From an uncultured Gammaproteobacteria bacterium (lineage in GTDB: Bacteria; Patescibacteriota; Patescibacteriia; CAYZDG01): a DNA stretch of 64,000 nucleotides. Below, in pieces: positions 2,757-56,811 of this stretch (within the stretch, counting starts at the first letter, position 1; every line of letters starts with the position of its first letter). The notes below the pieces were generated by a model. The model had not been told where the DNA came from, did not search any database, and saw only the letters and a program-made list of their open reading frames with translations. The DNA lies in NCBI GenBank assembly GCA_964536515.1, contig CAZHXI010000001.1, forward strand, positions 31,480-95,479, in the 5' to 3' direction. The position numbers and the translations under genes are program-made.

Positions 2757-5700
2757 ATGGAGCGGCGACGATTGAGCGGCTTGATCCTGGGGACGCTGGT
2801 AGCAGCTGCACTGCTCGGCACAACCCTCATAGCTACGGTCAGCGTAGCCAGGCTGCGAGAGCGGGCGTTCGCCGCCGTTGGTTTCGGTGGAACTGGAGCA
2901 ATTCTGAAGACGATCACGCAGGGTTCCGGAGCCGCAATTGCCACGCCAGGATTCCCCGTCGTTGCAGACCCGGGTGTACGTACGCAGAACTTCTTAAGCT
3001 CGCTGGGCGATGCGATTGGCTCGGCGCTTGAGAGCAGCGGCAAGCTGCTGGTGAAGAATACGCTGTCGCGCTTCTTGGGTGAGCTGGCGCGCGGCACGGC
3101 GGAGTGGATTGCTACCGGCAGCCCGGGCCAGATGCCGCTGTTCGAGACGCAGGGTGGGTACGAGTTCATGGCGGCGACGCGTGACGCGGCTACCGCAGAG
3201 TTCCTAGATAGCCTGGGCAGCGCCTACGGCGTAGACGTGTGTAACCCCGAGCTCGGCGCCAAGCTGGTCATCCACTACAGCAGCCTGCCGTCTAGCCGTC
3301 TGGATACCCCCCGCTGCTCCCTGAAGCAAATTCAGGAGAACTGGGCTGAGCTGCTGCCGAATAACCAGGCCTTCCTGCAGCGGTTCAGCGCCGCACTGGA
3401 GCCAGACCAGAACGACCTGGGCATTGCGCTGACCCTGGAGAAGAAGCTGGTGGTAGAGCGCGAGACCAAGGCGAACGCCGCCATTCTGGAGCGGCTAGAG
3501 TCGCAGGGCCTCAAGCCCCTGAAGGACCTCGCCGGTAATATTGTGACCCCGGCGGCGGCGGTGAACGAGCAGATACGTCAGACCCTAGGCTTGAGCGCGC
3601 AGAAGGAGCTGTCGTTCATCGGCGACCCGGTGGCGGATGCCATTGGCATATTCACCAACACCCTGGGCAACAGGCTTCGAGAGAAGTGGCTGAAGCAGGG
3701 CTTCGTGAACATTGCCGACGTATTCAATCGCACCGGCAGCAGCGGCGGCCTGTTCGGCGGAGCCGGGCGCTACAGCGTGGCCGAGCCCCGGTTCGCTGCG
3801 CTGGCCGGTTTGGAGCTGGGAACCTCGGGATCAATCGACGTCGTCGGCGAGCTGTCTGCGTGCTCGGACCCCGCAGACCCGGGGTTCGGCAACCAGTGCG
3901 TGCTCGACCCCTCCTTCGCGCAGGCGGTGCAGCAGCAGCTGACGGTACGCGAGGCAATGGAGCGCGGCTTGCTACGGGGTGAGTGGGCGTTCGGCTACCT
4001 GCAGGACGGCAGCGAGCCTCGCTACGGCACCGGCTACCCGTACTCGGCAATGGTCGTCATGCGCACCAAGCGCATCGTTCCGGTCGGCTGGGAGCTGGCG
4101 GCGCAGGCAGCCAAGGCATTCGGGCAGGGCGTTACCTTGGACCACGTGCTGCACTGCTACGAAGATCCTGCGGCCGCCGGCGATGGATCGCGTCCGGTGG
4201 ACTGCCAGATTAACGGCATTAACCCGTTCTACCACCTGGTAGACCCCAACTGGCTGCTCAAGGTTCCGGCCACGTACTGCGTGCGGCGCGGCGCCAGCGC
4301 CGAGCTGCTAACCGAGGAGTACATCTGCAACCAGGACACGAACGGCGATAGCTTCGTGGACTGCGTGAACCTAGATTCGAACATCAACGGCATTGCCGCT
4401 CCGGTCGATGGGGATCCGAGCTCCAAGGATGAGTACCTCAGGGTGATCCAACGGGCCGAGTACTGCGCCGACGAGCAGAGCTGCATCGCCGAGAACGCCG
4501 ATGGTACCTGCCGCGCCTACGGCTACTGCTTCGAGGAGAAGCAGACCTTCAGCCTGGGGGACAATGCCTGCCCGTCGCAGTTCGCCTCGTGCGTGGGCGT
4601 AACCACGCCCAGCGGGCAGCAGACCGCCTACATCCAGGACAGCGTGCAGACCTGCCCCACCGGAGCCGCTGGCTGCCAGTGGTACAGCCGTCGCAAGAGC
4701 GGCGCCAACTGGAGCGTCGCCCCCACCGACCGCATCTACCTCAACTCCGAGGCGGCAACCTGCAGCCCCGACGACGCCGGCTGCCGCAAGCTGCTGCGCT
4801 TCGGCCAGGGCACCAACCTGGTACCCAACGGCGGCTTCGAACAGTACGACCGCCACCTGCCCAGCGATCCGAATGGCACAGATAACTTCTTCATCAACGG
4901 CGGCACGGCACGTGGACGGGCCTACACCAACGCGGCCGATGTGTACGAGGGGCAGGCATCGTTCCGCCTGACGCGGTCCGGTAGCATCAGCGTGCTGGCC
5001 GAAACGGGCAGCGAGGTAGCGGGCCGAACCTTTACCGCCTCGGTTGCCAGCAAGAACTGCACCGCCGGTTCGCTGTCGCTGCTGGACGGCGACGGGGGAG
5101 CCATTGGTGCTCCGGTCAACCTGCAGATTAGCGGGCCCGACACAGACAACGGCCAGTGGCACACCGCTACTATTACCGGCACCACGCAGGCGCCGGGCAC
5201 CAGCCTTACGGTGCAGGTTACCGGCCTCAATGCCTCGGTGGATTCCGACTGCCTGCTGGACTCGCTCGCCCTGACCGAGGGTTCGGCGAGGGCTACGCTG
5301 GCCTACGGCGCCGGACGTTCGGTGCACATTAGCAGCCGAGCCACGCAGTGCAGCCAGGACGACGTGGGCTGCCAGGCCTTCGTGCCGACGAGCGGCGACC
5401 CCACCGTGTTCGGCCGTATTACCGCCAACGATTACTGCCCGGCGCAGTGCGTGGGCTACCAGAACTACAGCCCCCTCATCAACACCTTCGAGGAGCGCGA
5501 GGGTGCGTCCGCCCCGGCGCCGTCTAACTTCATTCCCTCTACCGCACGCAGCTGCAGCGCCGTTGACGTGGGCTGCAGCGAGTTCACCAGCCTGGCAGAG
5601 GTGCCGGAAGGCGGCGAGCGGGTAGCCTACTTCAGCCAGGTGCAGCAGTGCGTGCCCGAGGCGACGCCGAGCGTGGGTACCTACTACACCTGGGAGGGCA

Positions 5701-13536: not shown

Positions 13537-14340
13537 ATGTCCGTAGACCGCGCCACCGTAGATGCTGCCCGAGCTGCCGCCGCCAGCGCCATTGCCGCGG
13601 CAGGGGTAGACGAGTCGCAGCGTGCCGCTGCGGCCGCGGCTTGCGATACGGTGCTGTGGGGCATTACCCCGTACGCCGAGCTGGCCAGCTACCTGCAGGA
13701 GGCAGCCAAGCTGCCGCCGCCCGTAGCCGAGGCTCTGGCTAGGCGGCTGGATGTCTCCGCTAAGCCAGCCTGGGAGCAGGTTTGGGCGGGCCTAGACCAG
13801 CAGCAGCGCCACTGGAACAAGCAGGACCTCTCCGAAGACTACGCTAGCTTCGCCGCAGACCTAGACGCCGAGGTGGCCGAGGCGGCGCCGGAGCTGGCGC
13901 AGCAGCCTTCGGTTACGCCGCTGCTAGCCGAGCTGCTGGACGGCGGCGACAGGTACGACGCCACGGCGCTGCTAGCCTGGCTGGCGCAGCAGGGTAGGCT
14001 CGTGGGCGTGTGCATGCAGGACCGTGACATTCGTGAGGACTTCACCGAGTGGGTTACGGGCGCTCTGGGCGGGGGACAGGGCAAGCCCGCCATCGTCATT
14101 CCGGGGCCAGACCAGTGGAGCGCTCCGCTGACGGCGCTGCTGCTGCAGTACCTGCTGGAGGTGCGGCTGGGCTGGAACGCCGAGCAGTCTGCCATGGCCG
14201 CCATGTACCTGGCGCAGCAGCTGGCCAAGGCCAGCGGCGAGCACCGCTACGCTACCGCCGTGTACGGCGACGAGGCTACGGGCGAATTCCGCTGGCGGCC
14301 GGTGCGGCTGGAGAACGGCCAGGTCGTGTTCGCGGATTGA
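13537..14340 (+). CDS. Hypothetical acidic Ala-rich protein (secretion-locus associated)
   Basis: 267 aa ORF starting 1 nt after the previous stop. No recognisable motifs. Confidence 0.45.
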   Translation: MSVDRATVDAARAAAASAIAAAGVDESQRAAAAAACDTVLWGITPYAELASYLQEAAKLPPPVAEALARRLDVSAKPAWEQVWAGLDQQQRHWNKQDLSEDYASFAADLDAEVAEAAPELAQQPSVTPLLAELLDGGDRYDATALLAWLAQQGRLVGVCMQDRDIREDFTEWVTGALGGGQGKPAIVIPGPDQWSAPLTALLLQYLLEVRLGWNAEQSAMAAMYLAQQLAKASGEHRYATAVYGDEATGEFRWRPVRLENGQVVFAD

Positions 14341-14355
14341 TGCCTACGTAATGCG

Positions 14356-14383
14356 GTAGAGACGCATTGCAATGCGTCTCTAC
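14356..14383. repeat. Palindromic repeat family copy 1 (GTAGAGACG-CATTGCAATG-CGTCTCTAC), likely a bidirectional terminator
   Basis: Perfect 28-nt palindrome between convergent genes 13537..14340(+) and efp(-). Confidence 0.7.
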
Positions 14384-14415
14384 GTTCGTATTACCGGCGC
14401 ACCGGCCGTCCCTAC

Positions 14416-14979
14416 CTAGGCTCGTTCGACGTACGAATCCGTCTCGGTATTCACGATAATCTTGTCGCCCGCGTTCACGAACATGGGCACGCGCAGCTCG
14501 GCGCCGCCCGCCAGGGTGGCTACCTTGGTGGCGTTTCCGGCGGTGTCGCCCTTGGCGCTGCCCGGCGTCTCGGCTACCTCCACCGCTACCTTGGTGGGCA
14601 GGGTAGCCGCCACGGGCTGGCCCTTGAAGTACAGCACGTCTACCTCTAGCCCCTCGGATAGGTAGCATCCCTTGCCGCCGAGCTGGGCGTCGCTGAAGCT
14701 GAACTGGTCGAAGTCCTCGGTGCCCATGAAGGCGTAGCTGTCGCCGTCGCGGTACAGGTAGCTAGCCTTGCGGCGGACGATGTCCGCCTCGGGGTAGGTG
14801 TCGGAGGGCTGCACGGTCCGCTCCAGCGTGGCTCCCGTTAGCAGGTTGCGCATCTTGGTGCGCAGCGTGGCGCCGCCGCGGGCCACCTTGATGTGCTGGG
14901 TGAAGATGACGGTCCAGGGGGCGCCGTCTACCTCGATGACCGTTCCCAGCTTGAGCTGGTTCATCGTTAGCTGGGGCAT
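14416..14979 (-). CDS. efp: Elongation factor P
   Basis: MPQLTMNQLKLGTVIEVDG…KGDTAGNATKVATLAGGAELRVPMFVNAGDKIIVNTETDSYVERA, a strong EF-P signature. Start at internal ATG 14979; the track ORF extends to 15075. Confidence 0.9.
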   Translation of the reverse strand: MPQLTMNQLKLGTVIEVDGAPWTVIFTQHIKVARGGATLRTKMRNLLTGATLERTVQPSDTYPEADIVRRKASYLYRDGDSYAFMGTEDFDQFSFSDAQLGGKGCYLSEGLEVDVLYFKGQPVAATLPTKVAVEVAETPGSAKGDTAGNATKVATLAGGAELRVPMFVNAGDKIIVNTETDSYVERA

Positions 14980-15028
14980 ATGGTTGGGGTCAGGTAGATC
15001 CCTCGCTCCGCTCGGGATGCTCGGGCAG

Positions 15029-15277
15029 CTAGTGCTGCCCTCGCACGTACGGCAGCAGGGCCATGAAGCGGGCACGCTTTATGGCTTCGGCTACGCCGCG
15101 CTGGTGCCAGGCGCACACGCCGCTCTTGCGACGCGGCACTATCTTGCCGTAGGAGCTGGTGAAGCGCTGGAGGATGCCCGTCTCCTTGTAGTCGATGCCG
15201 CTGAGGTTGTTGGCGCAGAAGTAGCAGAAGCGGTCGCGGGCGAGGGGGGATGCTGGGGCGGGGGTACGTCGGTTCAT
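15029..15277 (-). CDS. rpsR: 30S ribosomal protein S18
   Basis: CYFCANNLSGIDYKETGILQRFTSSYGKIVPRRKSGVCAWHQRGVAEAIKRARFMALLPY, a canonical bS18. Confidence 0.85.
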   Translation of the reverse strand: MNRRTPAPASPLARDRFCYFCANNLSGIDYKETGILQRFTSSYGKIVPRRKSGVCAWHQRGVAEAIKRARFMALLPYVRGQH

Positions 15278-15295
15278 AGCTGTGATGGTGGACGG

Positions 15296-15733
15296 TTAGA
15301 AGGGAATCTCCTCGACCTTGATCTCGCCCTCGTCGGGCGGCAGGTCGTGGGTGGGAGCGGGGCTGGCAATTTCGGGGCGGGACTGGGTGCCGCCGCCAGC
15401 CGGGGCGCGGTCGAGCATAATCAGGCCCTCGGCGATGATCTCGGTGCGGAACTTCTTCACGCCCGTCTGGTCGTCCCAGGAGCGGGTCTTGATGCGGCCC
15501 TCCACGTAGACGCGCATGCCCTTGTGCATGTACTGCTGGCAGATTTCCGCCAGCCGGCCCCAGGCCACGACGCTGTGGAACTCCGTCTCCTCCTGCTTCA
15601 CGCCGGCCTGGTTGGTCCAGGTGCGGCTGGTGGCGACGCCGAGCGACGCGACCGACTGCCCGCTGGGGGTGGTGCGCACCTCCGGGTCGCGGGTTAGGTT
15701 GCCGATGATCATGGCGCGGTTGAGGTTGACCAT
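15296..15733 (-). CDS. ssb: Single-stranded DNA-binding protein
   Basis: MVNLNRAMIIGNLTRDPEVRTTPSGQSVASLGVATSRTWTNQAGVKQEETEFHSVVAWGRLAE OB-fold signature; acidic C-terminal tail ending DEGEIKVEEIPF. Confidence 0.85.
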   Translation of the reverse strand: MVNLNRAMIIGNLTRDPEVRTTPSGQSVASLGVATSRTWTNQAGVKQEETEFHSVVAWGRLAEICQQYMHKGMRVYVEGRIKTRSWDDQTGVKKFRTEIIAEGLIMLDRAPAGGGTQSRPEIASPAPTHDLPPDEGEIKVEEIPF

Positions 15734-15863
15734 ATGGGTAGTGAGTCGTTAGTAGTTGGTCGTAGGTTCGTTGGTCGGAAGTTAGAAGGTCGTCGGGTTC
15801 GATTGTCGTTCGTCGAATTTCCAACAATCGAATTTTCGACAAACGACCAGCGAGCTTTCGAAT

Positions 15864-16364
15864 TTATACGTTCTCGGTGGGGGCGGAGAGGATCTCGTCC
15901 AGCTTCTGGTCGAGGTCCTTCAGCTCTACCTTGGGCTTGGCCGGAGCAGCGGCGCGGGGGCGCCGGGTGGTGTGGCGGTCGGCGCCACGGTCCGCCTCGC
16001 GGTCGCGCATGCGGCTGGCCATACGATCCTTGGCCTTCTGCAGGCGTCCCTGCTCCTCGGCGGTAACGGCGTGCTTCTCCACGATTAGGTAGCGCAGCAC
16101 GTTCGGCACCAGCTTGAGGGTACCCTGCAGCGTGGGCAGGGTGTGGGGCACGGCGCGGAACTCGGCCACGGCGTAGGTGCCGTAGCGCTGGCCCTCCACG
16201 GGGTAGGCTAGGCGGGTGCGGCCGATGGTCGCCCCGTTGAGGATGGTTACGCCAGCCTTCTGCAGGGCTGCCTGCAGGGCGTCGGTAACGGTGTTAACCT
16301 CGGTGTCCTCGACGCCGGGGTGGATGATGTAGGTGCACTCGTAGTGCTTCTGGTCTTCGCGCAT
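15864..16364 (-). CDS. rpsF: 30S ribosomal protein S6 with an extended charged C-terminus
   Basis: MREDQKHYECTYIIHPGVEDTEVNTVTDALQAALQKAGVTILNGATIGRTRLAYPVEGQRYGTYAVAEF, a bS6 fold signature. Conserved rpsF-ssb-rpsR order. Confidence 0.85.
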   Translation of the reverse strand: MREDQKHYECTYIIHPGVEDTEVNTVTDALQAALQKAGVTILNGATIGRTRLAYPVEGQRYGTYAVAEFRAVPHTLPTLQGTLKLVPNVLRYLIVEKHAVTAEEQGRLQKAKDRMASRMRDREADRGADRHTTRRPRAAAPAKPKVELKDLDQKLDEILSAPTENV

Positions 16365-16533
16365 GCGATTCTATGGTTACCTCGCCCGTGGGGGAGAGGA
16401 TCTGTCTCCCCGGTAAAGCCCAGGGTAGGCAGATATGGATAACGTTTGTGGCTGGAAATTACACGGGAATCGCCTCTCCGTCAAGGACGGTTCATGGGGG
16501 CGTGGTCCCGTGGGGCAATGGCCATTTGCGTCG

Positions 16534-16564
16534 CGTAGAGACGGGTTTAAAACCCGTCTCTACG
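16534..16564. repeat. Palindromic repeat family copy 2 (GTAGAGACG-GGTTTAAAACC-CGTCTCTAC)
   Basis: 31-nt near-perfect palindrome in the divergent intergenic region between rpsF(-) and the methyltransferase(+). Confidence 0.7.
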
Positions 16565-16603
16565 ACGTTTGGTACATTCGGCAACGTTTGTTATGGTGCC
16601 CCC

Positions 16604-17803
16604 ATGAACCGATACGTATTCCTCCTGGGCCGGGAGGCTGCCCTGGGCGCAGCCGAGGTAATTGCTACCGGCCGCTTCTCATCTATCGATGCTGCTGCCA
16701 GCGGCGGCGAGGTTCTAGTTGCCTCTACAGATACTGCCCTGGAGAACCCCCAGGCCTTCTTGGACCGTATCGGCGGGACGGTGAAGCTAGCAGGGGTTGT
16801 TTCGGAGGTCGAGGGACAGCCGTCTCTGGAAGACCTGCTAGCCCTGCTACCCGGCGAGGGCAAGGTTCACTTCGGCATCAGCTGGTACGGCGGGCAGGTG
16901 CCGGACCTAGAGAAACTGGGGCGCCAGATGAAGGCGGCGCTGCAGGCGCAAGATCGCTCCGCCCGTTTCGTCAGCAGCCGCAGTAACCCGCTGTCCTCCG
17001 TCATCGTGCGGACGCAGAAGCTGCTGGGCGCGAGGGGATGTGAAATCATAGTGGCAATCCTTAACGGTGGTGACGTAGGGTCGAGGCGCGCCTCGACCCT
17101 ACTGGGCCGGACCATCGCTGCACAAAATTTTATTGAGTACGGCCGGCGTGATGCCGGACGCCCCAGCCGCAACATCAACCGCGGCATGCTGCCGCCCAAG
17201 GTGGCGCAGGTGCTGCTGAATTTGGCGCAGGTTAAGCCGGGCGACACGGTGCTGGATCCGTTCTGCGGCACGGGCACGGTGCTGCAGGAGGCGCTGGTAA
17301 TGGGTGCCGGCAAGGCTATCGGCCGTGACGTAGATGACGACGCGGTGGAGGAGGCCACCGAGAACCTTTCGTGGCTGCCACGCCGCGCCCAGGTAGCGGG
17401 TACGTGGGAGGTCTACCGCCACGACGCACGCCAGGCCGACCGTAAGCTGCAGGATGGATCCATCGATGCGGTGGTAACCGAGCCGCTGCTGGGGCCGCTG
17501 CGGCCGCCGCGCCAGCACGAGGCGGTGGTCAAGCTGGTGGGGGAGCTGCAGCAGCTGTACCGGGCGTCGTTCGTGGCTGCGGCGGCCGCCCTAAAGCCCG
17601 GCGGCCGGCTGGTGGCCGTGCTGCCCGTGATCGGCGAGGTTTCCTCTGCCGACCTGGGTGGGCTGCCCGGCCTGAGCTCCGTCAGCCTGCTGCCCCAGGA
17701 CCTAGCCGCAAGGTTCGGCATCGACGTTGGCCAGCGATTGGTGTACCGCCGCCCCGGCCAGGCCGTAGGCCGCGCGGTGGTGGTTTTTGAAAAAAACCTG
17801 TAG
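16604..17803 (+). CDS. SAM-dependent RNA methyltransferase (Trm11/RlmL-like N2-G/N6-A family)
   Basis: DPFCGTGTVLQEALVMGAG SAM-binding motif I and a downstream VVTEPLLGPL (D/N-PPY-like) region. Start at ATG 16604; the track ORF from 16373 runs through the palindromic repeat. Confidence 0.55.
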   Translation: MNRYVFLLGREAALGAAEVIATGRFSSIDAAASGGEVLVASTDTALENPQAFLDRIGGTVKLAGVVSEVEGQPSLEDLLALLPGEGKVHFGISWYGGQVPDLEKLGRQMKAALQAQDRSARFVSSRSNPLSSVIVRTQKLLGARGCEIIVAILNGGDVGSRRASTLLGRTIAAQNFIEYGRRDAGRPSRNINRGMLPPKVAQVLLNLAQVKPGDTVLDPFCGTGTVLQEALVMGAGKAIGRDVDDDAVEEATENLSWLPRRAQVAGTWEVYRHDARQADRKLQDGSIDAVVTEPLLGPLRPPRQHEAVVKLVGELQQLYRASFVAAAAALKPGGRLVAVLPVIGEVSSADLGGLPGLSSVSLLPQDLAARFGIDVGQRLVYRRPGQAVGRAVVVFEKNL

Positions 17804-17830
17804 AGACGAGGCGCGCCTCGTCTCTACAGG
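17797..17830. repeat. Palindromic repeat family copy 3 (CCTGTAGAGACGAGGCG|CGCCTCGTCTCTACAGG), overlaps the methyltransferase stop codon
   Basis: 34-nt perfect palindrome; the TAG stop at 17801-17803 lies inside the left arm. Confidence 0.7.
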
Positions 17831-17879
17831 TCCGCCGTTGGCGTACCCGCCGCGCGGCCGCTTGCCCCGTTCATAGAAC

Positions 17880-17909
17880 GGACGATTCGTGGTATAATTT
17901 TTTCGTTCT
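17880..17909 (+). promoter_or_regulatory. Extended -10 promoter (GACGATTCGTGGTATAATTTTTT), near-leaderless start of the second secretion-locus operon
   Basis: TGgTATAAT at 17890-17899; ATG at 17910 is 10 nt downstream. 19/22 identity with the motif at 2171-2192. Confidence 0.6.
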
Positions 17910-19004
17910 ATGCCTACCGAGAATGCCGCGAAAGAGCAGCCGGCGAGCGTGGCGCCCGCGTCATCGCTGGGCGTGGTCGTGAGGGGCAGCGACGGCAGCT
18001 TCCGCGTGTGGCAGGACGGCGAGTGGCGGCTGCTGGCCGCGGCTCCCGTGGTAGCGGCGCCGTCTAAGCCGACGTTCGGCGGCCCCAATGCCGCTAGCTA
18101 CTTCAGCGCAGCCGACGAGCAGGAGGCCCGCCGCCTAGCCCAGCGCCTAGATACCGCTCCCGAGCACAAGCGCTACTCCCTCGCGAAGATTATTGGGCAG
18201 GTGCAGGAGAGGGCTAAGGTGAGCATTGCCGGGCCTGCGGCGGACGCCTTCCGCCGTGCCGTGCTCACCTTCCTGCGGGGTACCCGGGGGCCGGTAGACT
18301 TCGGCGCCGTGCTGGTGCGTCCGGCTGACCAGGGCGGCGTGGGGCTGACGTCCGCTGAGTCGCAGGCGCTGGTGGCAATACTCTCCGTCATAGGCGACAA
18401 GGTCCGCGCCGAGGGCGGCGAGGTGGTGGATGACCCGGCGTTGAATCCGCCGGCCGCGGCGCCCGTGCCGCCGAAGCCGTCGGTCAAACCCGACGTAGAG
18501 ACGAGGCGCGCCTCGTCTCTACCGCCCGCGTCACCAACCCCCGTCGCACCCGTGCCGCCGCGGCCGATTGCGCCCCCTCTGCCCCGTCCCGCGGTTCCCC
18601 TGACGCCGCTCGCCAAGCCCCAGGCGGTGAACGACGTTCGTCCGGCTGCTCCAGCCGCGCGGGTAGCTCCACCCCGCCGCCTGGTTGGGCCGGTGGACGA
18701 GCTCCGCCAGATGGACATTGCCACCTTCCGTACGCTCGGCGCTACGCCGGCAGACCAGGCGAACGCCGTCGTGGCCAAGGTGCAGGCGCTCGGCCGGGAG
18801 TCGCTCACCCGGCACGCCGAGGGCCTGGCAGCCTGGCGTGAGTGCCCCGTGTACACCGCGTACCGCGCCATCGGCCTGCAGAGCATCCAGGGGGGCAAGC
18901 CCGTGGCCCAGGTCGTCGCCGAGCTGTTCCGTGACGGCAAGGCTACGCTGACCGAGGCTGAGTTCAACGCCGTGGCCGACGCCAACCGCCGGCTTCGCCT
19001 CTAG
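17910..19004 (+). CDS. Hypothetical protein with a central Pro-rich linker (secretion-locus associated)
   Basis: 364 aa; PAPVPPKPSVKP…PVAPVPPRPIAPPLPRPAVPLTPLAKP linker. Contains an in-frame copy of the palindromic repeat (encodes DVETRRASSLPP). Confidence 0.5.
   Translation: MPTENAAKEQPASVAPASSLGVVVRGSDGSFRVWQDGEWRLLAAAPVVAAPSKPTFGGPNAASYFSAADEQEARRLAQRLDTAPEHKRYSLAKIIGQVQERAKVSIAGPAADAFRRAVLTFLRGTRGPVDFGAVLVRPADQGGVGLTSAESQALVAILSVIGDKVRAEGGEVVDDPALNPPAAAPVPPKPSVKPDVETRRASSLPPASPTPVAPVPPRPIAPPLPRPAVPLTPLAKPQAVNDVRPAAPAARVAPPRRLVGPVDELRQMDIATFRTLGATPADQANAVVAKVQALGRESLTRHAEGLAAWRECPVYTAYRAIGLQSIQGGKPVAQVVAELFRDGKATLTEAEFNAVADANRRLRL
18495..18522. repeat. Palindromic repeat family copy 4, located inside a CDS
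   Basis: GTAGAGACGAGGCGCGCCTCGTCTCTAC, a 28-nt perfect palindrome within the Pro-rich linker of the 17910..19004 ORF. Confidence 0.7.
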
Positions 19005-19009
19005 CGCAT

Positions 19010-19483
19010 ATGGCCCAGCTGCAGCACTTCGTCGTCCCCCAGTTCATAGATATCGAGAGCAAGATTCTGGGGCCCATTACCACCCGGCAGTTCCTGTGGG
19101 TGCTGGGCGCCGGGCTCATTTTCTTCATCGCCCTGCGCACGCTGCCGGTGCCGGCCTTCATTGCCGTAGCGGTGCTGGATGTAGCCGTGTTCGGCAGCTT
19201 CGCCTTCGTGAAGGTGAACGGCCAGCTCTTCCATAACTTCCTGGTCAGCGCCATTGCCTTCGGGCGGCGGCCGAGGCTGTACCTATGGACCGCCGGGGTA
19301 GAGGATGACGGAGTTTCCGTTGCCGCCGTCAGCCCGGCGGAGGCGGTGGGCCAGCGTCCGCTGATTCCCGCCGGCAGGCTGAACGAGCTGGCGCTGCTGG
19401 TAGACACCGGCGGCACCTACCAGGCCGTGACCGCATTCAAGGAAATACCGCCTATCCCCGAAGACCATGTCCCCCAAGCCTAA
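19010..19483 (+). CDS. Small two-TM membrane protein, PrgI/VirB3-like position upstream of VirB4
   Basis: 157 aa; hydrophobic hairpin FLWVLGAGLIFFIALRTLPVPAFIAVAVLDVAVFGSFAFV. Gene-order analogy to Gram-positive T4SS (PrgI then PrgJ). Confidence 0.45.
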   Translation: MAQLQHFVVPQFIDIESKILGPITTRQFLWVLGAGLIFFIALRTLPVPAFIAVAVLDVAVFGSFAFVKVNGQLFHNFLVSAIAFGRRPRLYLWTAGVEDDGVSVAAVSPAEAVGQRPLIPAGRLNELALLVDTGGTYQAVTAFKEIPPIPEDHVPQA

Positions 19484-20141
19484 GCTAAAGAGGGCTCCTG
19501 CTGCCGCCGCGCTGCCGTTCTCGTACCTGCGCGAGGGCAGCGTCATCATGCGAGACGGCAGCCTGCGCGCGGTGCTGCTGGCGTCGTCCATAAACTTCTA
19601 CCTGAAGTCTGAGACCGAGCAGAACGCTATCGTCAGCGGCTACATCGGCTTCCTCAACACGCTCAGCTTCCCGCTGCAGATCGTCATTCAGTCGCGCCGG
19701 CTGAACATAGACGGCTACCTGGCGCAGCTCGAGACTCTGGAGCGGCAGCAGACCAACGAGCTGCTGCGGCTGCAGACGGCAGACTACCGGCAGTTCGTTA
19801 AGGAGCTTCTGGAGCTGGAGGATATTATGACCAAGCGCTTCTACGTGGTCGTGCCCTACGACCCGGCGGGGGATAAGACGCGCGGCTTCATCAGCCGGCT
19901 GACATCTGCCTTCTCGGCGCCGGCTGCGGTGGCGCTGCGCGAGGAGAAGTTCCGTCGGGCCTCGGAGGAGCTATCCAAGCGGGTGGCGCTGGTGCAGAGC
20001 GGCCTGGGCCAGATCGGCATAACCACGGCGGCGCTCGACACCCCCAGCTTGATAGAGCTGTACTACCGAACCTACAACCAGGAGGTAGCCGACGTGCAGC
20101 CGCTGTCGGCCGTCGGTAAGCTGCAGGTAGATGCTTCGTAG
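19467..20141 (+). CDS. Hypothetical protein, possibly the N-terminal domain of a split VirB4-like ATPase
   Basis: 224 aa; overlaps the upstream gene by 17 nt and the downstream VirB4-like gene by 11 nt out of frame. Combined 224+637 aa approximates full-length VirB4 size. Confidence 0.45.
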   Translation: MSPKPKLKRAPAAAALPFSYLREGSVIMRDGSLRAVLLASSINFYLKSETEQNAIVSGYIGFLNTLSFPLQIVIQSRRLNIDGYLAQLETLERQQTNELLRLQTADYRQFVKELLELEDIMTKRFYVVVPYDPAGDKTRGFISRLTSAFSAPAAVALREEKFRRASEELSKRVALVQSGLGQIGITTAALDTPSLIELYYRTYNQEVADVQPLSAVGKLQVDAS

Positions 20142-22044
20142 TATGGATGACGCCCCACGCTTCACCCCCGCAGACCTCAGCCGGTCCCCTCGTCCTTCTG
20201 ACTCGGGGCAGGCTCCCTCGGTTCCGGCTCCCGAGCGTCGCCAGCAGCAGGCTGCCCAGCTGGAGGCCGAGCAGGTCTACCGCCGCGGCGTGGTCTCGGT
20301 GCGCGAGCTGCTGGCGCCGCCCAGCTTCAAGGTTGACTCCAGCTTCGTGCAGCTCGGCGGGGTCTTCGCCCGGACCCTGTTCGTCAGCGCCTACCCCCGC
20401 TACCTGACGGTGGGCTGGTTCGCCAGCGTCATCAACTACAGCGCCACGTTGGATATCGCCATCTACTTCTACCCGCTCGCCGCCGACGTGGTTCTCAAGA
20501 AGATGCGCAAGAAGGTGGGCGAGCTGGAGGCGCAGCTGTCCGAAGACAGCGAGCACGGCGCCCCGCGCGACCCCGCCCGTGAGGCAGCGGTCCGCGACCT
20601 CGAGCAGCTCCGCGACGACCTGACGCAGGGAACCGAGCGGTTCTTCCAGGTCGGGCTGTACGTTACGCTCTACGCGCCGTCGGCGGCCGAGCTCAACCGG
20701 CTAACCGAGCGTATAGAGGGCGTCATCGGCAGCCGCCTGGTCTACACCAAGCGAGCCTTCTTCCAGGCCGAGCAGGGCTTCAATAGCACGCTGCCGCTCG
20801 CCGACGACGAGCTGGGGCTGCCGCTGAACCTGAACACCTCGCCGGCAGCCGCCAGCTTCCCGTTCACCTCGGCTGACCTCACCGGCGACAGCGGCATCAT
20901 GTACGGCATCAACCGGCACAACAATAGCCTCATCATCTTCGACCGGTTCTCGCTGCAGAACGCCAACATGGTGGTGTTCGCCACGGCCGGCAGCGGCAAG
21001 AGCTACGCGGTGAAGCTAGAGATCCTGCGCAGCCTGATGCTGGGCACCGACGTCATCGTCATCGACCCCGAGATGGAGTACCGCCACCTGTGCGAGGCGG
21101 TGGGCGGCACGTACATCAACGTATCGCTTACGGCCGACACCAAGATCAACCCGTTCGACCTGCCGGCGGCGGCCCCGGGCGGCGAGACCAAGGCCTCCGA
21201 CGTCATCCTGACCGCCGTCATCGCCATCAAGGGCCTGCTGCGGCTGATGGTGGGCGGCCTGACCCCGCAGGAGGATTCGCTGCTCGACCGCGCCATCCTC
21301 GAGACGTACGCCAAGAACGACATTACCCCCAGCGCCGACCTGACCAAGGTTACCGCGCCGCTCATGTCCGACCTGGTGCAGGTGCTGGGCGGCCTCACCG
21401 GCGGCGAGAGCATTGTGCAGCGGCTGGTGAAGTACACCTCGGGCACCTTCTCGGGCCTGTTCAATGCCCCCACCAACGTGCGCCTCTCCAACCAGCTGGT
21501 CGTCTTCTCGGTCCGCGACCTGCAGGACGAGCTGCGGCCGCTCGCCATATACAACATTATCCTGTTCATTTGGAGCGTCGTGCGCAGCGAGCTGAAGAAG
21601 CGGCTGCTTGTAATCGACGAGGCCTGGTGGCTTATGCAGTATGAGGACTCAGCTCGGTTCATCTACGCCCTGGTGAAGCGCTGCCGCAAGTACTACCTGG
21701 GCATCACCACCATTACCCAGGACGTGCAGGACTTCCTCAAGTCGCCCTACGGCCCCGCCATCATCAATAACTCAGCCCTGGCGCTGCTGATGCGCCAGCA
21801 CCCCAACGCCATTAGCATGGTGCAGCAGTCCTTTTTGCTCACCGAGGGCGAGAAGTACCTGCTGCTCGAGGCGAACGTGGGCGAGGGTATATTCTTCGCC
21901 GGCAGCCGCCACGCCGCCGTTAAGGTCATGGCCTCCTACGGCGAGGACCAGCTGATTACCACCGATCCGCGCCAGCTGCTGGAGATTGAGCACGCCAAGC
22001 AGGCCTTCGCCCAGGCGCAGGATGCGGCGAAGCCTAACAGTTGA
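20131..22044 (+). CDS. VirB4/TrbE/PrgJ-like type IV secretion ATPase
   Basis: Walker A VVFATAGSGKSY, then IDPEMEY, Walker B LLVIDEAWWLM, then TQDVQDF, the typical VirB4/TraC family motif order. Low-complexity ~80 aa N-terminus. Confidence 0.8.
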   Translation: MLRSMDDAPRFTPADLSRSPRPSDSGQAPSVPAPERRQQQAAQLEAEQVYRRGVVSVRELLAPPSFKVDSSFVQLGGVFARTLFVSAYPRYLTVGWFASVINYSATLDIAIYFYPLAADVVLKKMRKKVGELEAQLSEDSEHGAPRDPAREAAVRDLEQLRDDLTQGTERFFQVGLYVTLYAPSAAELNRLTERIEGVIGSRLVYTKRAFFQAEQGFNSTLPLADDELGLPLNLNTSPAAASFPFTSADLTGDSGIMYGINRHNNSLIIFDRFSLQNANMVVFATAGSGKSYAVKLEILRSLMLGTDVIVIDPEMEYRHLCEAVGGTYINVSLTADTKINPFDLPAAAPGGETKASDVILTAVIAIKGLLRLMVGGLTPQEDSLLDRAILETYAKNDITPSADLTKVTAPLMSDLVQVLGGLTGGESIVQRLVKYTSGTFSGLFNAPTNVRLSNQLVVFSVRDLQDELRPLAIYNIILFIWSVVRSELKKRLLVIDEAWWLMQYEDSARFIYALVKRCRKYYLGITTITQDVQDFLKSPYGPAIINNSALALLMRQHPNAISMVQQSFLLTEGEKYLLLEANVGEGIFFAGSRHAAVKVMASYGEDQLITTDPRQLLEIEHAKQAFAQAQDAAKPNS

Positions 22045-22056
22045 TAGACTGCAGCT

Positions 22057-22620
22057 ATGGACCGCCGCCGCATGGTGATCATCTCCGGAGCAGCCCTGCT
22101 CGCCATCGTCGCCGTGGTGCTGTGGCTGGTGCTCCGGGGTAGCCCGACCACGCCTCCGCCGGCTGGAGTAACGCCCACGACCACGCCAGAGGATACCTCC
22201 AATCTGCCGCCGCCGGTCAGCACGCCGACGACCCCCGAGCCCGACCGGACCGGGGCGGTGGTAGCGGCACGCGTCTGGGCCGAGCGGTTCGCCAGCTGGT
22301 CTAACGAGGATGGCTTCACCAACCTGCAGCAGCTGGGTAGCCAGTCGACCGCCCAGGTTCAGTCTTTCCTGGCCACCTACCGCCAGCAGCTGCAGCAGCG
22401 GTACCCGGTGGCCGATGGCTACCGCGGCGTAACCGGCCGGGCGCTCTCGCCCAAGCTAGACGCCTTCGATGCAGGCGCCGGCACGGCCCAGGTGAGCGTG
22501 GCCATGCAGCTGGCCGAGAGCACGTCTACATCGCCCACGGTGTACAACCGTACGCTGGACTTACGCCTGCTGCGCAGCGGCGAGGCGTGGCTGGTGGACT
22601 ACGTGAAGTGGGAGGAGTAA
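22057..22620 (+). CDS. Membrane-anchored protein (N-terminal TM, Pro/Thr linker, ~120 aa globular domain); VirB8-like role is speculative
   Basis: MVIISGAALLAIVAVVLWLVL TM, then PTTPPPAGVTPTTTPEDTS linker. Confidence 0.4.
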   Translation: MDRRRMVIISGAALLAIVAVVLWLVLRGSPTTPPPAGVTPTTTPEDTSNLPPPVSTPTTPEPDRTGAVVAARVWAERFASWSNEDGFTNLQQLGSQSTAQVQSFLATYRQQLQQRYPVADGYRGVTGRALSPKLDAFDAGAGTAQVSVAMQLAESTSTSPTVYNRTLDLRLLRSGEAWLVDYVKWEE

Positions 22621-23084
22621 TGCCGACCGAGGAAGAGAAGTTAGTAGCGGATGCCGAACGGCAGCAACGTCGGCAGTCGCAGGCTGCGGCCGAGAGCGAG
22701 AAGCCCAGCGGGGCGGGCGAGGCGATCGGGGGCATAGTCGCCAAGGTTTCGCCCACGGCAGCGGCGCTCCAGTTCGCCTGGAGGTTCTACCTGCCCTCGT
22801 TCACCCTCACGTCCATCTACATTGTGCTGCACATCTTGCTGCGGTACGTATTCCAGTTCAAACTCTTCTGTCGAGCAGATGAGGGCTCTCCCCTGGGGGG
22901 AGTCGGCAAGTCGGCGGCCTCAGCGTTCGGCGCGGGTGGCGGGACGAGCGAGAAGGCTTGGATTGCCCTCGGCCTTGCCTCGGGTCTGCCGCTGGCGTTC
23001 GCCTGCGTTCTCCTGTACGCCATTGCCTACGCCATGGAGCACCCGCTATCTACGCTGTACGCGTTGCTGACCGGCAACCTATAG
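22620..23084 (+). CDS. Small polytopic membrane protein
   Basis: Start ATG overlaps the upstream stop (TAATG); 2-3 hydrophobic helices (FTLTSIYIVLHILLRYVF; IALGLASGLPLAFACVLLYAIAYA). Confidence 0.4.
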   Translation: MPTEEEKLVADAERQQRRQSQAAAESEKPSGAGEAIGGIVAKVSPTAAALQFAWRFYLPSFTLTSIYIVLHILLRYVFQFKLFCRADEGSPLGGVGKSAASAFGAGGGTSEKAWIALGLASGLPLAFACVLLYAIAYAMEHPLSTLYALLTGNL

Positions 23085-23120
23085 CGAGACGGCGCTCGGG
23101 CTTTACGCTACACTAATTCC

Positions 23121-24299
23121 ATGTCAAACCTGCGGCGGATTCTGCTCTCACTGGCGTTGCTGGCCGCAGCTGGAGCCATGGGCTTCGGCCTCTACTGGCT
23201 CTTCTTCCGCGTGCCTACGCCCTCGCCGGTAACGCCGCCCCCCGGCGCCGGCGGAGGACAGTTCCCGCCGTCGGGGCAGGGCGGCGGAGGCACGGCCGCT
23301 ACCGGCACCGGCCGGTTCCCCATTACCCCGGCCGACGGCGTCGGGCCGTACGTTACAGCTAGCACCACGGATGGCGTAGCCGGCGCCGTAGCTGCCCCGG
23401 ACGGTAGCATCCGCTACTACGATTCCATCCGCAAGCAATTCGTTAACCTAGCTGCCGACGGCAGCATTCAGCCGCTCTCGCCCGACCGATTCTTCGGCGT
23501 CTCCGACGTTACCTGGGCGCCCGGCAATTCTCGCGCGGTCGTGGCCTACCCGGACGGCAGCAAGGTGCTGTACGATTTCGCCACCCAGCAGCAGTCCACC
23601 CTGCCGCGTGCCATGCAGGACGTCTCCTTTGACCCCTCCGGCACCAAGCTAGCTAGCCTGTACCTCGGCTCGACCAAGGAGGAGCAGTGGCTGGTAACCT
23701 CCAACGCCGACGGCAGCCAGATTCAGCTGGTGGAGCCGGTCGGCGGAAAGGTGAACAACTTCAAGCCCAGCTGGTCGCCGAGCGGCCAGATTGTGGGGCT
23801 GTTCGCCGAGGCGGTAGACGGCGAGCGTCAGGAGGTGGTGCCCATCGGCCGTAACGGCGAGAACTTCCGCTCATTCGTGGCGCCCGGCCGCGGATTCACC
23901 GCCGAGTGGTCGCCCTCGGGCGAGCGTATCCTCTACAGCGTGTTCAACTCGGCTAGCCAGGGCCGGCCCGAGCTGTACCTAGCCGACGGCCGCGCCGATA
24001 CCTTCGGCGCGAACAGCACCAGCCTGGGGCTATCTACCTCTGCCGACTGGTGCTCATTCTCGGGAGGCAGCGTGTACTGCGCGGCGCTCGACACACCGCC
24101 GGCCCTGCTGGGTTCGTACCCCGAGCTGGCGCAGGGGCAGGCGTCGTCGCTGTGGCGAATAGACCTAGCCAGCGGCCAGCGCACCCGGGTCGCCCAGCTG
24201 CCGCAGGGCTTTACCCCCAGCCGGGTAACCGCCGACGCCGGCGGCGTGTACGTAGCCGACCAGTCTACCGGACGTCTCTATGCTGCGCCGACGCGGTAG
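23121..24299 (+). CDS. TolB-like (PD40/WD40-like) beta-propeller protein with N-terminal membrane anchor
   Basis: N-terminal TM, then repeated YPDGSKVLYDF / SWSPSGQIVGLF / EWSPSGERILYSV PD40-type repeats. Confidence 0.5.
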   Translation: MSNLRRILLSLALLAAAGAMGFGLYWLFFRVPTPSPVTPPPGAGGGQFPPSGQGGGGTAATGTGRFPITPADGVGPYVTASTTDGVAGAVAAPDGSIRYYDSIRKQFVNLAADGSIQPLSPDRFFGVSDVTWAPGNSRAVVAYPDGSKVLYDFATQQQSTLPRAMQDVSFDPSGTKLASLYLGSTKEEQWLVTSNADGSQIQLVEPVGGKVNNFKPSWSPSGQIVGLFAEAVDGERQEVVPIGRNGENFRSFVAPGRGFTAEWSPSGERILYSVFNSASQGRPELYLADGRADTFGANSTSLGLSTSADWCSFSGGSVYCAALDTPPALLGSYPELAQGQASSLWRIDLASGQRTRVAQLPQGFTPSRVTADAGGVYVADQSTGRLYAAPTR

Positions 24300-25365
24300 C
24301 CTGCTCTTGCTCGCCGCGCTCGCCACGCTGGCGGTAGCCGTGGGCACATCCGCCGTGGCAACGGCGCAGACTTCGGGCCCGAGCAACAGCAGCGGCCAGG
24401 TTGAATTCTGGCCCAGCATCTACTTCCCGGGGCTGGAGCAGATCGAGGGCGTTAGGCAGGATACTGCGACGGGGCGGTACTCCGTAACCGTTACGCCAAC
24501 TACCCTCGGCGAGTACATCGTTGCGCTGTACAAGTTCTTCACCGGGGCAACGGCCATCGTGGCCATGTTCATGGTTACCTACGGAGGGCTGCTGTGGCTC
24601 CTCGCCGGCGGCAACCAGGGCAGCATCAGCCACGCCAAGGAGGTCATTACCGGGGCTATCGCCGGCATGGTCATTGCGCTGCTGTCGTACGCGCTGCTGG
24701 CTACCATCAGCCGGGGGCTGGTGGAGTTCAAGAGCCTAGACACCAGGCTGGAGGCGAGGCTGGGGCAGGATAGTACCTCGTCCGGCCCAGACCTGGGCTG
24801 CGCGAATCCGCAGTTCCAGGACATCATCACCACGGACGCCATAGACGCTACCAGCGGCGGCGCCTCGTTTACCTGCGCCAACATCGGCGCAGTCGAGTCG
24901 CTGGTGGTTGCGGCGCAGAATACCTTCGATCAGACGAATAGACGGGTGCTGCTGACCAGCGCCTACAGGTCTCGTACCAGGCAGGAGCAGCTCTACGATG
25001 AGAACACGCGCAATAGCGCCTGCCGTCGAGACCACCCCGCAGACTGGAAGACCCAGTGCGGCTCGGGCGACGCCACCCCGCCCACCTGTAACCCGTGGCT
25101 ATCTCGGGGCTGCCCCCACACCACCGGCTACGCCCTAGACGTCCGCTGCTCTGGGCAGCCTGAGTACGGCGAGTGCCAGCTCGCCCTGGAGCAGAGCATG
25201 ATCGAGCAGGGTTTCTGTAGGCTGGCGAATGAGACCTGGCACTTCGAGAAGCCTCCGGTCTCATCCAACTGCGTCGGCGGCCCCGTTGACGGCACCGGCT
25301 ACCGCAGCGGCTGCCCCACTTGCTGCAATAGTTTGACCAACGAGCACTGCGAGGGAAGAGAGTGA
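24280..25365 (+). CDS. Fusion of a VirB2/TrbC-pilin-like N-terminal module with a C-terminal M15 (VanY-like) zinc D,D-peptidase (peptidoglycan hydrolase)
   Basis: Signal peptide, then VAMFMVTYGGLLWLLAGGNQGSISHAKEVITGAIAGMVIALLSYALL (TrbC/VirB2-like). C-terminal SAYRSRTRQEQLY…CPHTTGYALDV…ETWHFE (S-x-H-x(n)-D … W-H-[FY]-E M15 motifs). Confidence 0.55.
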   Translation: MLRRRGSLLLLAALATLAVAVGTSAVATAQTSGPSNSSGQVEFWPSIYFPGLEQIEGVRQDTATGRYSVTVTPTTLGEYIVALYKFFTGATAIVAMFMVTYGGLLWLLAGGNQGSISHAKEVITGAIAGMVIALLSYALLATISRGLVEFKSLDTRLEARLGQDSTSSGPDLGCANPQFQDIITTDAIDATSGGASFTCANIGAVESLVVAAQNTFDQTNRRVLLTSAYRSRTRQEQLYDENTRNSACRRDHPADWKTQCGSGDATPPTCNPWLSRGCPHTTGYALDVRCSGQPEYGECQLALEQSMIEQGFCRLANETWHFEKPPVSSNCVGGPVDGTGYRSGCPTCCNSLTNEHCEGRE

Positions 25366-36087: not shown

Positions 36088-36143
36088 CTGCCTGCTAGAG
36101 GCAGCCAAGGCCCCGGGAAAATCCCGGGGCCTCATTCTATTCT

Positions 36144-47646: not shown

Positions 47647-47653
47647 ACTAACA

Positions 47654-47681
47654 GGCCCCGGTCGCAACTGCGACCGGGGCC
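47654..47681. terminator. Bidirectional terminator hairpin GGCCCCGGTCGC-AACT-GCGACCGGGGCC between convergent genes
   Basis: 12-bp perfect stem between 46978..47646(+) and the dsbA-like gene(-). Confidence 0.6.
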
Positions 47682-47745
47682 TTAACTCTATCAAGCTAGA
47701 TCTCTCGGCTCGTCGCTACGCTCCTCGCTCGGGATGACGAGCCTT

Positions 47746-56314: not shown

Positions 56315-56758
56315 ATGTACGTCGGCGAGCAGCTAGCAGCAGACGTCCTGGAGGCGCAGAAGCGCCGCGACCAGTCTGCCGTAGATATCCTGCGGCAGCT
56401 TCGGTCTGCGTTCCACAATGCCGAGATTGCGGCGCGTGGCCAGCTCGACGATGCGGCGACGATCAAGTTCTTCCAGCAGCAGCTGAAGCAGCGCGAGGAG
56501 GCGTCGGCGGTATTCCGCAAGGCTGGCCGCATAGAGCTAGCCGAGAAGGAGGAGGCCGAGGCAGCCGTCATCCGAGGCTACCTGCCGCCGGCGATGACGC
56601 CGGAGCAGCTCGACCAGCTGGCTGCCGCTGCCGTGGCCGAGGCTGGCAAAGACTTCGGCGCGGCGATGAAGCTGGCCGTAGCCAAGGCTGCCGGGGCTGC
56701 CACGGGGCAGGAGGTATCGGCGGCCGTGCGCCGGGCAATAGAGGGTGCCGGCACGTAA
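56315..56758 (+). CDS. yqeY: GatB/YqeY-domain protein
   Basis: Conserved rpsU-yqeY arrangement; YqeY-like helical sequence (…IRGYLPPAMTPEQLDQLAAAAVAEAG…). Confidence 0.75.
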   Translation: MYVGEQLAADVLEAQKRRDQSAVDILRQLRSAFHNAEIAARGQLDDAATIKFFQQQLKQREEASAVFRKAGRIELAEKEEAEAAVIRGYLPPAMTPEQLDQLAAAAVAEAGKDFGAAMKLAVAKAAGAATGQEVSAAVRRAIEGAGT

Positions 56759-56781: not shown

Positions 56782-56811
56782 CGTAGAGACGAGGCGCGCC
56801 TCGTCTCTACG
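56782..56811. repeat. Palindromic repeat family copy 5 (CGTAGAGACGAGGCG|CGCCTCGTCTCTACG)
   Basis: 30-nt perfect palindrome downstream of yqeY; acts as terminator and/or insulator before the giant adhesin promoter. Confidence 0.7.

Follow-up and report, generated by a model that had tools for sequence, protein, structure and literature searches.

The 64-kb window analyzed here (the whole stretch of DNA under study, with a GC content of ~65%) carries six short palindromes that are members of the catalogued "double foot" REP hairpin family, which belongs with RAYT group 4 / TnpA-REP subclass 2.4. The arms, the architecture, and the protein motifs linked to the hairpin all match the literature, which places the element in this known class. 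Very probably, the six palindromes are non-autonomous double-foot REPs spread by a group-4 RAYT (TnpA-REP subclass 2.4). The window adds one more genome, that of a high-GC, Terrabacteria-like host, to a catalogued REP class, and it provides a clean natural example of REPs that reside in frame in ordinary proteins and supply a stop codon.

Palindromic repeats in the window

A pattern search of the window for GTAGAGACG-N(6-14)-CGTCTCTAC identified five exact matches with spacers of 10 or 11 nt (Table 1), while none of 100 dinucleotide-preserving shuffles of the window matched the pattern. The five-copy palindromic family reported in a preliminary description of this DNA is therefore real. The number five stands for the canonical copies, but a sixth copy, a variant, had been missed; it was recovered by a relaxed search and by a general hairpin scan of the window. 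In this variant, two arm positions are changed and their pairing partners are changed too (compensatory substitutions), and the centre is AGGCGCGCCT, as in copies 3, 4, and 5. At three sites the family had been drawn with wider boundaries than the exact matches, and the extra flanking bases were indeed found to pair.

Table 1. Positions in the window, sequences, and gene contexts of the six REP copies, their counterparts in syntenic relatives, and other window features mentioned in the text.
Feature	Position	Self-complementary stretch	Sequence	Context in the window	Same site in relatives
REP copy 1	14356-14383		GTAGAGACG-CATTGCAATG-CGTCTCTAC	Intergenic, where a hypothetical gene (13537-14340, +) and efp (14416-15075, -) converge	L150: no REP, 23S_rRNA_IVP-type insert instead
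REP copy 2	16535-16563	16534-16564 (one extra C:G pair)	GTAGAGACG-GGTTTAAAACC-CGTCTCTAC	Divergent intergenic region between rpsF (15864-16364, -) and the methyltransferase gene (16604-17803, +)	L150: empty
REP copy 6 (variant)	17075-17102		GTAGGGTCGAGGCGCGCCTCGACCCTAC = GTAGGGTCG-AGGCGCGCCT-CGACCCTAC	In frame inside the methyltransferase CDS; peptide VGSRRASTL	L151: canonical REP GTAGAGACGCGGCATGCCGCGTCTCTAC; L150 and L153: decayed
REP copy 3	17800-17827	17796-17831 (ACCT/AGGT extension)	GTAGAGACG-AGGCGCGCCT-CGTCTCTAC	TAG in its GTAG (17801-17803) is the methyltransferase stop codon	L153: REP with a different centre and a single mismatch in the arms; L151: different GTAG...GTAC palindrome; L150: possible truncated remnant; L152: none
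REP copy 4	18495-18522		GTAGAGACG-AGGCGCGCCT-CGTCTCTAC	In frame in the Pro-rich linker of CDS 17910-19004 (T4SS-neighbouring protein); peptide VETRRASSL	L150: REP with centre AAAAATATTG; L151, L152, and L153: absent
REP copy 5	56783-56810	56782-56811 (one extra C:G pair)	GTAGAGACG-AGGCGCGCCT-CGTCTCTAC	Between yqeY (56315-56758, +) and the gene of a giant fn3-rich protein (56882-61873, +; 1,663 aa)	
Lone half-arm	14407-14415		CGTCCCTAC	Directly adjoining the stop codon of efp; 24 nt away from copy 1	
Promoter-like site	16576-16606		TTGGTA-17-TATGGT	Before the methyltransferase gene	
Promoter-like site	17892-17912		TGGTATAAT	Before the next gene	
T4SS-like gene cluster	19010-25365			Between rpsF-ssb-rpsR/efp and recG	L150: 11100-17723; L153: 2290-8769
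GC-rich hairpin	36108-36132		AGGCCCCGG...CCGGGGCCT		
GC-rich hairpin	47653-47682		AGGCCCCGG...CCGGGGCCT		

The units are perfect palindromes of 28-29 nt, with a stem of 12-13 bp, a loop of 3-4 nt, and DNA hairpin energies of -12 to -13 kcal/mol (z of -5 to -7). All six start with GTAG and end with CTAC. Perfect hairpins with a stem of at least 10 bp number 13 in the window, compared with 0-2 in shuffles, and six of the 13 represent the REP family. The arm includes the type IIS restriction site CGTCTC, and the earlier suspicion that this is incidental proved sound, since functional-looking variants without the site (GTAGGGTCG in the window and GTAGAGACA in Emticicia) keep the structure.

Alignment of the window copies together with 80-nt flanks revealed no similarity beyond the unit. 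The copies are thus not remnants of one duplicated segment, an origin that the preliminary description had set down for checking, and segmental duplication was ruled out. Every copy is solitary, with 668-2152 bp between neighbouring copies and no second arm set within 100 bp of any of them, and four of the six lie within 4.2 kb (14356-18522) around one methyltransferase gene. Two other classes of repeat were considered and rejected. BIMEs and REPINs are built from paired inverted REPs with mosaic linkers; the symmetric units found here are neither mosaics nor REP doublets, so the earlier comparison with BIMEs was abandoned. MITEs have a body of 70-300 bp, terminal inverted repeats, and target-site duplications, features that do not fit a unit of 28-29 nt lacking a flanking direct repeat.

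Additional observations concern the surroundings of copy 1 and hairpins elsewhere in the window. The lone half-arm near copy 1 may be a REP remnant or may have arisen by chance. Logan contig SRR12487045_59407, the only public short-read contig with the copy-1 region, ends exactly at the last base of this copy (also the end of L121); the REP repeat breaks assemblies. The two GC-rich hairpins in Table 1 are also perfect and have a common stem; possibly they act as terminators or form a second small family of repeats.

Gene context of the copies

Gene contexts were assigned from ORF lists, Pfam scans, and codon-position GC, and they confirm the range of locations described previously, namely convergent gene ends, a divergent promoter, overlap with a stop codon, and residence within a CDS. 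The last of these had been counted once. Copy 4 is indeed located in CDS 17910-19004, but copy 6 lies within the methyltransferase gene, which brings the intragenic copies to two. The methyltransferase is of the RMKL/UPF0020 type. A longer ORF (16373-17803), which would place copy 2 in a CDS, was dropped, because GC3 of the upstream extension is 0.60, as against 0.78 for the gene, indicating that the extension is noncoding; the gene call in the relative L151 led to the same choice.

Copy 2 is located 12 nt upstream of the promoter-like sequence TTGGTA-17-TATGGT. This site and the second promoter-like site in Table 1 are conserved and precede the start codons (ATG) of the methyltransferase gene and the next gene, respectively, by only 6-12 nt, which suggests leaderless or near-leaderless mRNAs. 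The T4SS-like gene cluster is of the monoderm type and syntenic in relatives. It encodes PrgI, a TraC-like protein, a VirB4-like P-loop_TraG ATPase, and a weak T4SS_pilin/VanY-like protein. In a tblastn search against plasmids, the closest counterparts of the VirB4-like protein were those of Streptomyces, Embleya, and Bacillales, at ~35% identity, that is, Actinomycetota/Bacillota-like sequences of monoderm T4SSs.

The locations of the copies bear on the question of whether the hairpins are RNA elements (terminators or mRNA-stabilizing 3' hairpins) that owe their presence to selection for such a role and not to transposition. Copies 1, 3, and 5 lie just 3' of coding regions, where such elements would be found, and enterobacterial REPs are described by Di Nocera, De Gregorio & Rocco (2013; PMC3733652) as stabilizing upstream mRNA. 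However, no T-run follows any of the copies (3' flanks GTTCGTATTA, GACGTTTGGT, AGGTCCGCCG, CGCCCGCGTC, and GGCGTTTGGC), and the hairpins were accordingly rejected as intrinsic terminators. Two copies lie within CDSs and one upstream of a promoter, and identical 9-nt arms in unrelated phyla and in genomes of 27-65% GC would not be expected from independent selection. An Rfam scan of the window at gathering score returned four tRNAs only, with no match at the REPs. Selection as RNA elements is very hard to credit, and any RNA role of the hairpins can only be secondary.

Distribution and covariation in other genomes

A scan of one genome per species yielded at least 120 genome loci with the same arms, spread over more than 10 phyla; these taxonomic counts sample the matches listed and are not censuses. 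Among the matches listed, the phyla and groups included Bacteroidota, Cyanobacteria (many Nostocales), Chloroflexota, Acidobacteriota, Ignavibacteriota, Rhodothermales, Planctomycetota, Patescibacteria, Desulfuromonadota, Zixibacteria, Omnitrophota, and others. The genome loci listed contain about 90 different centres, mostly self-complementary. The exact 28-mer with centre AGGCGCGCCT recurs in 28 metagenome contigs with GC contents of 27-58%, and the motif is also present in at least 120 IMG/VR viral contigs, with no RAYT encoded in the 120 viral loci listed. Additional copies are thus abundant in other genomes and in metagenome and viral contigs, and the test named at the outset, a lack of further copies in the rest of the genome, did not refute the family.

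The variation between the arms is structured. Across 104 distinct 10-nt centres, the three stem-extending pairs are Watson-Crick in 83-94% of cases, compared with shuffled means of 30-47%, and all four pair types occur at these positions. The stem-extending pairs of the centres thus represent covariation between invariant arms. The four innermost bases, which are unable to pair in the hairpin, are also complementary in 69-78% of the centres, against about 30-41% in shuffles. The flank preference is symmetric, with T or C at position -1 in 72% and A or G at position +1 in 75% of the genome copies, and no target-site duplication was seen at the REP copies.

These data can be set against the proposal that the palindromes are operators of a dimeric dsDNA-binding regulator with GTAGAGACG half-sites and a 10-11 bp spacer. 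Invariant inverted arms and a variable spacer are consistent with such sites, and copy 2 abuts a promoter-like site. Self-complementarity of the spacer would be needless for an operator, yet it is present at 83-94% of the stem-extending positions, and copies occur in frame in CDSs and at gene 3' ends. Furthermore, close relatives have gained and lost sites (see below), and across more than 10 phyla the recurring neighbours are RAYT genes, with no conserved regulator. The self-complementary centres, the in-frame copies, and the gain and loss between relatives leave the protein-binding site family, offered in the preliminary description as an alternative, unsupported, and we judge it extremely improbable.

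RAYT genes associated with the hairpin

Among other genomes, 10 loci have a RAYT homologue beside, around, or containing the hairpin (L022, L020, L105, L113, L139, L082, L128, L054, L132, and L001). In L022, from a Dysgonomonadaceae MAG, the hairpin is present on both sides of a 179-aa HUH/Y1 gene. The encoded protein has REP_Tyr_transpos as its best NCBIfam match (E = 1e-15, under the curated cut-off), weak similarity to Pfam Y1_Tnp, and a single PDB relative, 4ER8, the E. coli TnpA-REP. Its motifs NHFH, WQ, and YIFNNP are those of the subclass 2.4 signature (PMC6006769, Table 1). L139 and L128 carry the exact 28-mer of the window in frame within the RAYT gene, where it encodes VETRRASSL, the same peptide as in window copy 4.

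A profile search for RAYTs returned at least 6,942 matches, of which the best 120 were all Bacteroidota-like. YIxxNP was present in all 120 and NHxH in 100 of these best 120 of at least 6,942 homologues, and 103 of the 120 contained a REP-encoded peptide, a ranking that is biased by the profile. Among the loci sampled, RAYT adjacency is confined to low-GC, Bacteroidota-type loci. Searches with tblastn and a six-sequence HMM detected no RAYT/Y1 gene among all six-frame ORFs of the 64-kb window and none in ~45 kb of the syntenic relatives L150-L156. A RAYT, which the preliminary description had proposed to look for alongside a REP-like dispersed family, thus occurs beside the hairpin in the 10 loci of other genomes but not in the window. 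The REP-like assignment itself is upheld, as the identical hairpin flanks or lies inside RAYT genes elsewhere and the element is listed in Table S1 of PMC6006769. Separately, a different arrangement is seen in L105 (a Paludibacteraceae MAG), where positions 5214-5584, directly downstream of a RAYT gene, are occupied by seven REP-like hairpins, GTTGAGACGC[CA]CGGCCGTGCGTCTTTAC, repeated in tandem with a period of 57 bp.

Relation to catalogued systems

TnpA-REP subclass 2.4 was defined by Quentin, Siguier, Chandler & Fichant (2018; PMC6006769) and is the same as group 4 in the RAYT classification of Bertels et al. (2017; PMC5581495). The former paper gives NH[IFV]H, WQ, and YIxNNP as the motifs of the subclass, whose members have a median length of 194 aa and occur in "Cyanobacteria, Bacteroidetes and various phyla"; in the latter (PMC5581495), group 4 is described as frequent in Cyanobacteria, Chlorobia, and Caldilineae. 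Table S1 of PMC6006769 includes GTAGAGACGCACGGCCGTGCGTCTCTAC (Chloroflexus aggregans, ACL24330.1) and GTAGAGACGTTGCATGCAACGTCTCTAC (Cyanothece, ACK69880.1), both flagged as double foot and assigned to subclass 2.4, and the arms GTAGAGACG/CGTCTCTAC of the window are identical to those of these two entries. A full-text literature search for the arm sequences retrieved primers and unrelated matches only. The earlier statement that such elements are poorly characterized outside proteobacteria holds only in part, since hairpins of exactly this class are catalogued for Cyanobacteria, Bacteroidetes, and Chloroflexi.

The window units are built like the double-foot REPs, in which the 5' GTAG and the 3' CTAC pair with each other at the bottom of a perfect 12-13 bp stem closed by a 3-4 nt loop, and their phylum range and their insertion in frame into genes are also those of this class (PMC6006769). 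They differ in four respects. The window contains no RAYT and hence no REPtron. The centres AGGCGCGCCT and GGTTTAAAACC were not met in the available part of Table S1. REPs in frame inside a RAYT gene are a published oddity, and the in-frame hosts described in PMC6006769 are tnpA-REP genes, whereas those in the window encode an unrelated methyltransferase and a T4SS-neighbouring protein. Finally, turnover of the centre at orthologous sites, observed here, does not appear in the accessible sections of that paper.

The wider GTAG-tagged REP superfamily, with its REPtrons and intragenic REPs, is treated by Di Nocera et al. (PMC3733652) and includes the E. coli REP/BIME and the Pseudomonas REPIN. 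Its members are short, dispersed, GTAG-ended hairpins associated with RAYTs (REPtrons), with a preference for positions downstream of genes and occasional intragenic copies, all of which resembles the window family. In that superfamily, however, the tag is unpaired and lies at one end only, and the units often form dimers, BIMEs, or REPINs, while in the window units it is duplicated and paired, and each unit is solitary and fully symmetric. E. coli REPs also require a stem bulge, and the window stems are perfect. A further parallel may be drawn with the subterminal hairpins of IS200/IS605 (TnpA-IS200), where a Y1/HUH enzyme recognizes an ssDNA hairpin and a guide tetranucleotide selects the cleavage site, as is proposed for the window family. 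The window unit differs in being only 28 nt long, with neither a transposase between two different ends nor a left end that is distinct from the right one. The motif of the associated proteins is the class 2 Y---NP, in contrast to Y---Q in IS200.

Comparison of orthologous sites in relatives

The contigs of the relatives L150-L154 share synteny with the window, their nucleotide identity to it being 69-93%, which permitted a site-by-site comparison (Table 1). Occupancy differs among the syntenic relatives at every comparable site. The protein encoded by CDS 17910-19004, which contains copy 4, has homologues at 71-87% identity; those of L152 (P0002) and L151 (P0003) are without the REP-encoded segment of ~10 aa. 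Relative to L151, the insertion measures ~30 nt and keeps the frame. At this site, the arms of the window and L150 are identical at 18 of 18 bases and the flanks are 70-80% identical, while the centre agrees at one of 10 positions. Further independent REPs occur in the methyltransferase gene of the relatives, at 723-750 in L151 and 3-30 in L152, the latter copy being private. Presence or absence, decay, and differing occupants at orthologous sites show that REPs have been mobile in this lineage. The insert that occupies the copy-1 site of L150 (6252-6697) is an observation of its own: it is a low-GC segment of ~400 bp flanked by inverted repeats of ~25 nt, carries the gene of a four-helix protein resembling 23S_rRNA_IVP/bAvd (PF05635, E = 6e-38), and looks like a small mobile cassette.

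The comparison also informs a reading in which the palindromes are fossils, deposited by a RAYT since lost from the lineage and now decaying or persisting passively. The decayed copies at orthologous sites in L150 and L153 agree with this, as does the lack of a RAYT in the window and the syntenic relatives, and the loss of REPtrons by deletion is described by Di Nocera et al. (PMC3733652). The RAYT search, however, covered about 1-2% of a typical genome, and all six window copies are perfect palindromes. In addition, AGGCGCGCCT is the centre of four of the six copies, whereas at the same sites other centres occur in relatives that are about 80% identical, which points to recent activity or homogenization in this genome. 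We consider the fossil origin unlikely. The comparison between relatives provides a tractable system for studying how group-4 RAYTs create, replace, and homogenize hairpins.

Proposed mode of spread

In the favoured explanation, spread of double-foot REPs by a group-4 RAYT, the 28-29-nt unit folds in ssDNA into a perfect hairpin with GTAG and the complementary CTAC facing each other at its base. By analogy with characterized enzymes, the RAYT would bind the folded single-stranded hairpin with the GTAG foot as a guide, cleave at a CT dinucleotide, here built into the unit's own CTAC foot on both strands, and rejoin the strands via a 5'-phosphotyrosine intermediate. The unit would thereby be copied or moved to new sites, and apparently it may also overwrite resident units. 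As the unit is symmetric, either strand could be a substrate. Two of its three reading frames are open, which allows it to survive in frame in tolerant protein linkers, and in the third frame its TAG can act as a stop codon. mRNA 3'-end stabilization and promoter modulation are possible by-products for the host.

We infer the cleavage chemistry from the TnpA-REPs of E. coli, Stenotrophomonas, and Marinomonas; it has been tested for RAYT groups 2 and 3 only (PMC3479197, PMC8266576). In these groups and in the E. coli co-crystal, A3 and G4 of GTAG select CT for cleavage, and the 5'-phosphotyrosine enables strand transfer (PMC3479197, PMC8266576). The GTAG is base-paired in the double-foot REP and unpaired in the E. 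coli co-crystal, so the mode of recognition may differ. Against spread by a RAYT, we counted the small number of copies (six in 64 kb, four of them within 4.2 kb), the lack of a RAYT in the window or in ~45 kb of relatives, and the confinement of RAYT adjacency, among the loci sampled, to low-GC, Bacteroidota-type loci.

Three points are of remaining interest: the invariance of the foot irrespective of GC content, residence in frame, and replacement of the centre at fixed sites with palindromy extending through the loop. The invariance of the 9-bp foot across phyla and over a GC range of 27-65% implies an unusually frozen RAYT-DNA specificity. As for the centres, we tentatively propose, with considerable doubt, that double-foot REPs may be rewritten in place rather than just inserted and left, a templated, strand-symmetric step regenerating palindromes between fixed feet. 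This proposal draws on the copy-4 site, where intact arms enclose an almost entirely different centre, on the prevalence of particular centres, which seems to be specific to each genome, and on palindromy that includes the loop bases. Candidate routes would be cleavage of both feet by the RAYT and then either fold-back or copying from the opposite strand, or else an exchange from REP to REP. If such rewriting took place, the identical 28-mers across 27-65% GC and in viral contigs would reflect the horizontal travel of a RAYT/REP pair with a specificity for the foot that is frozen across phyla.
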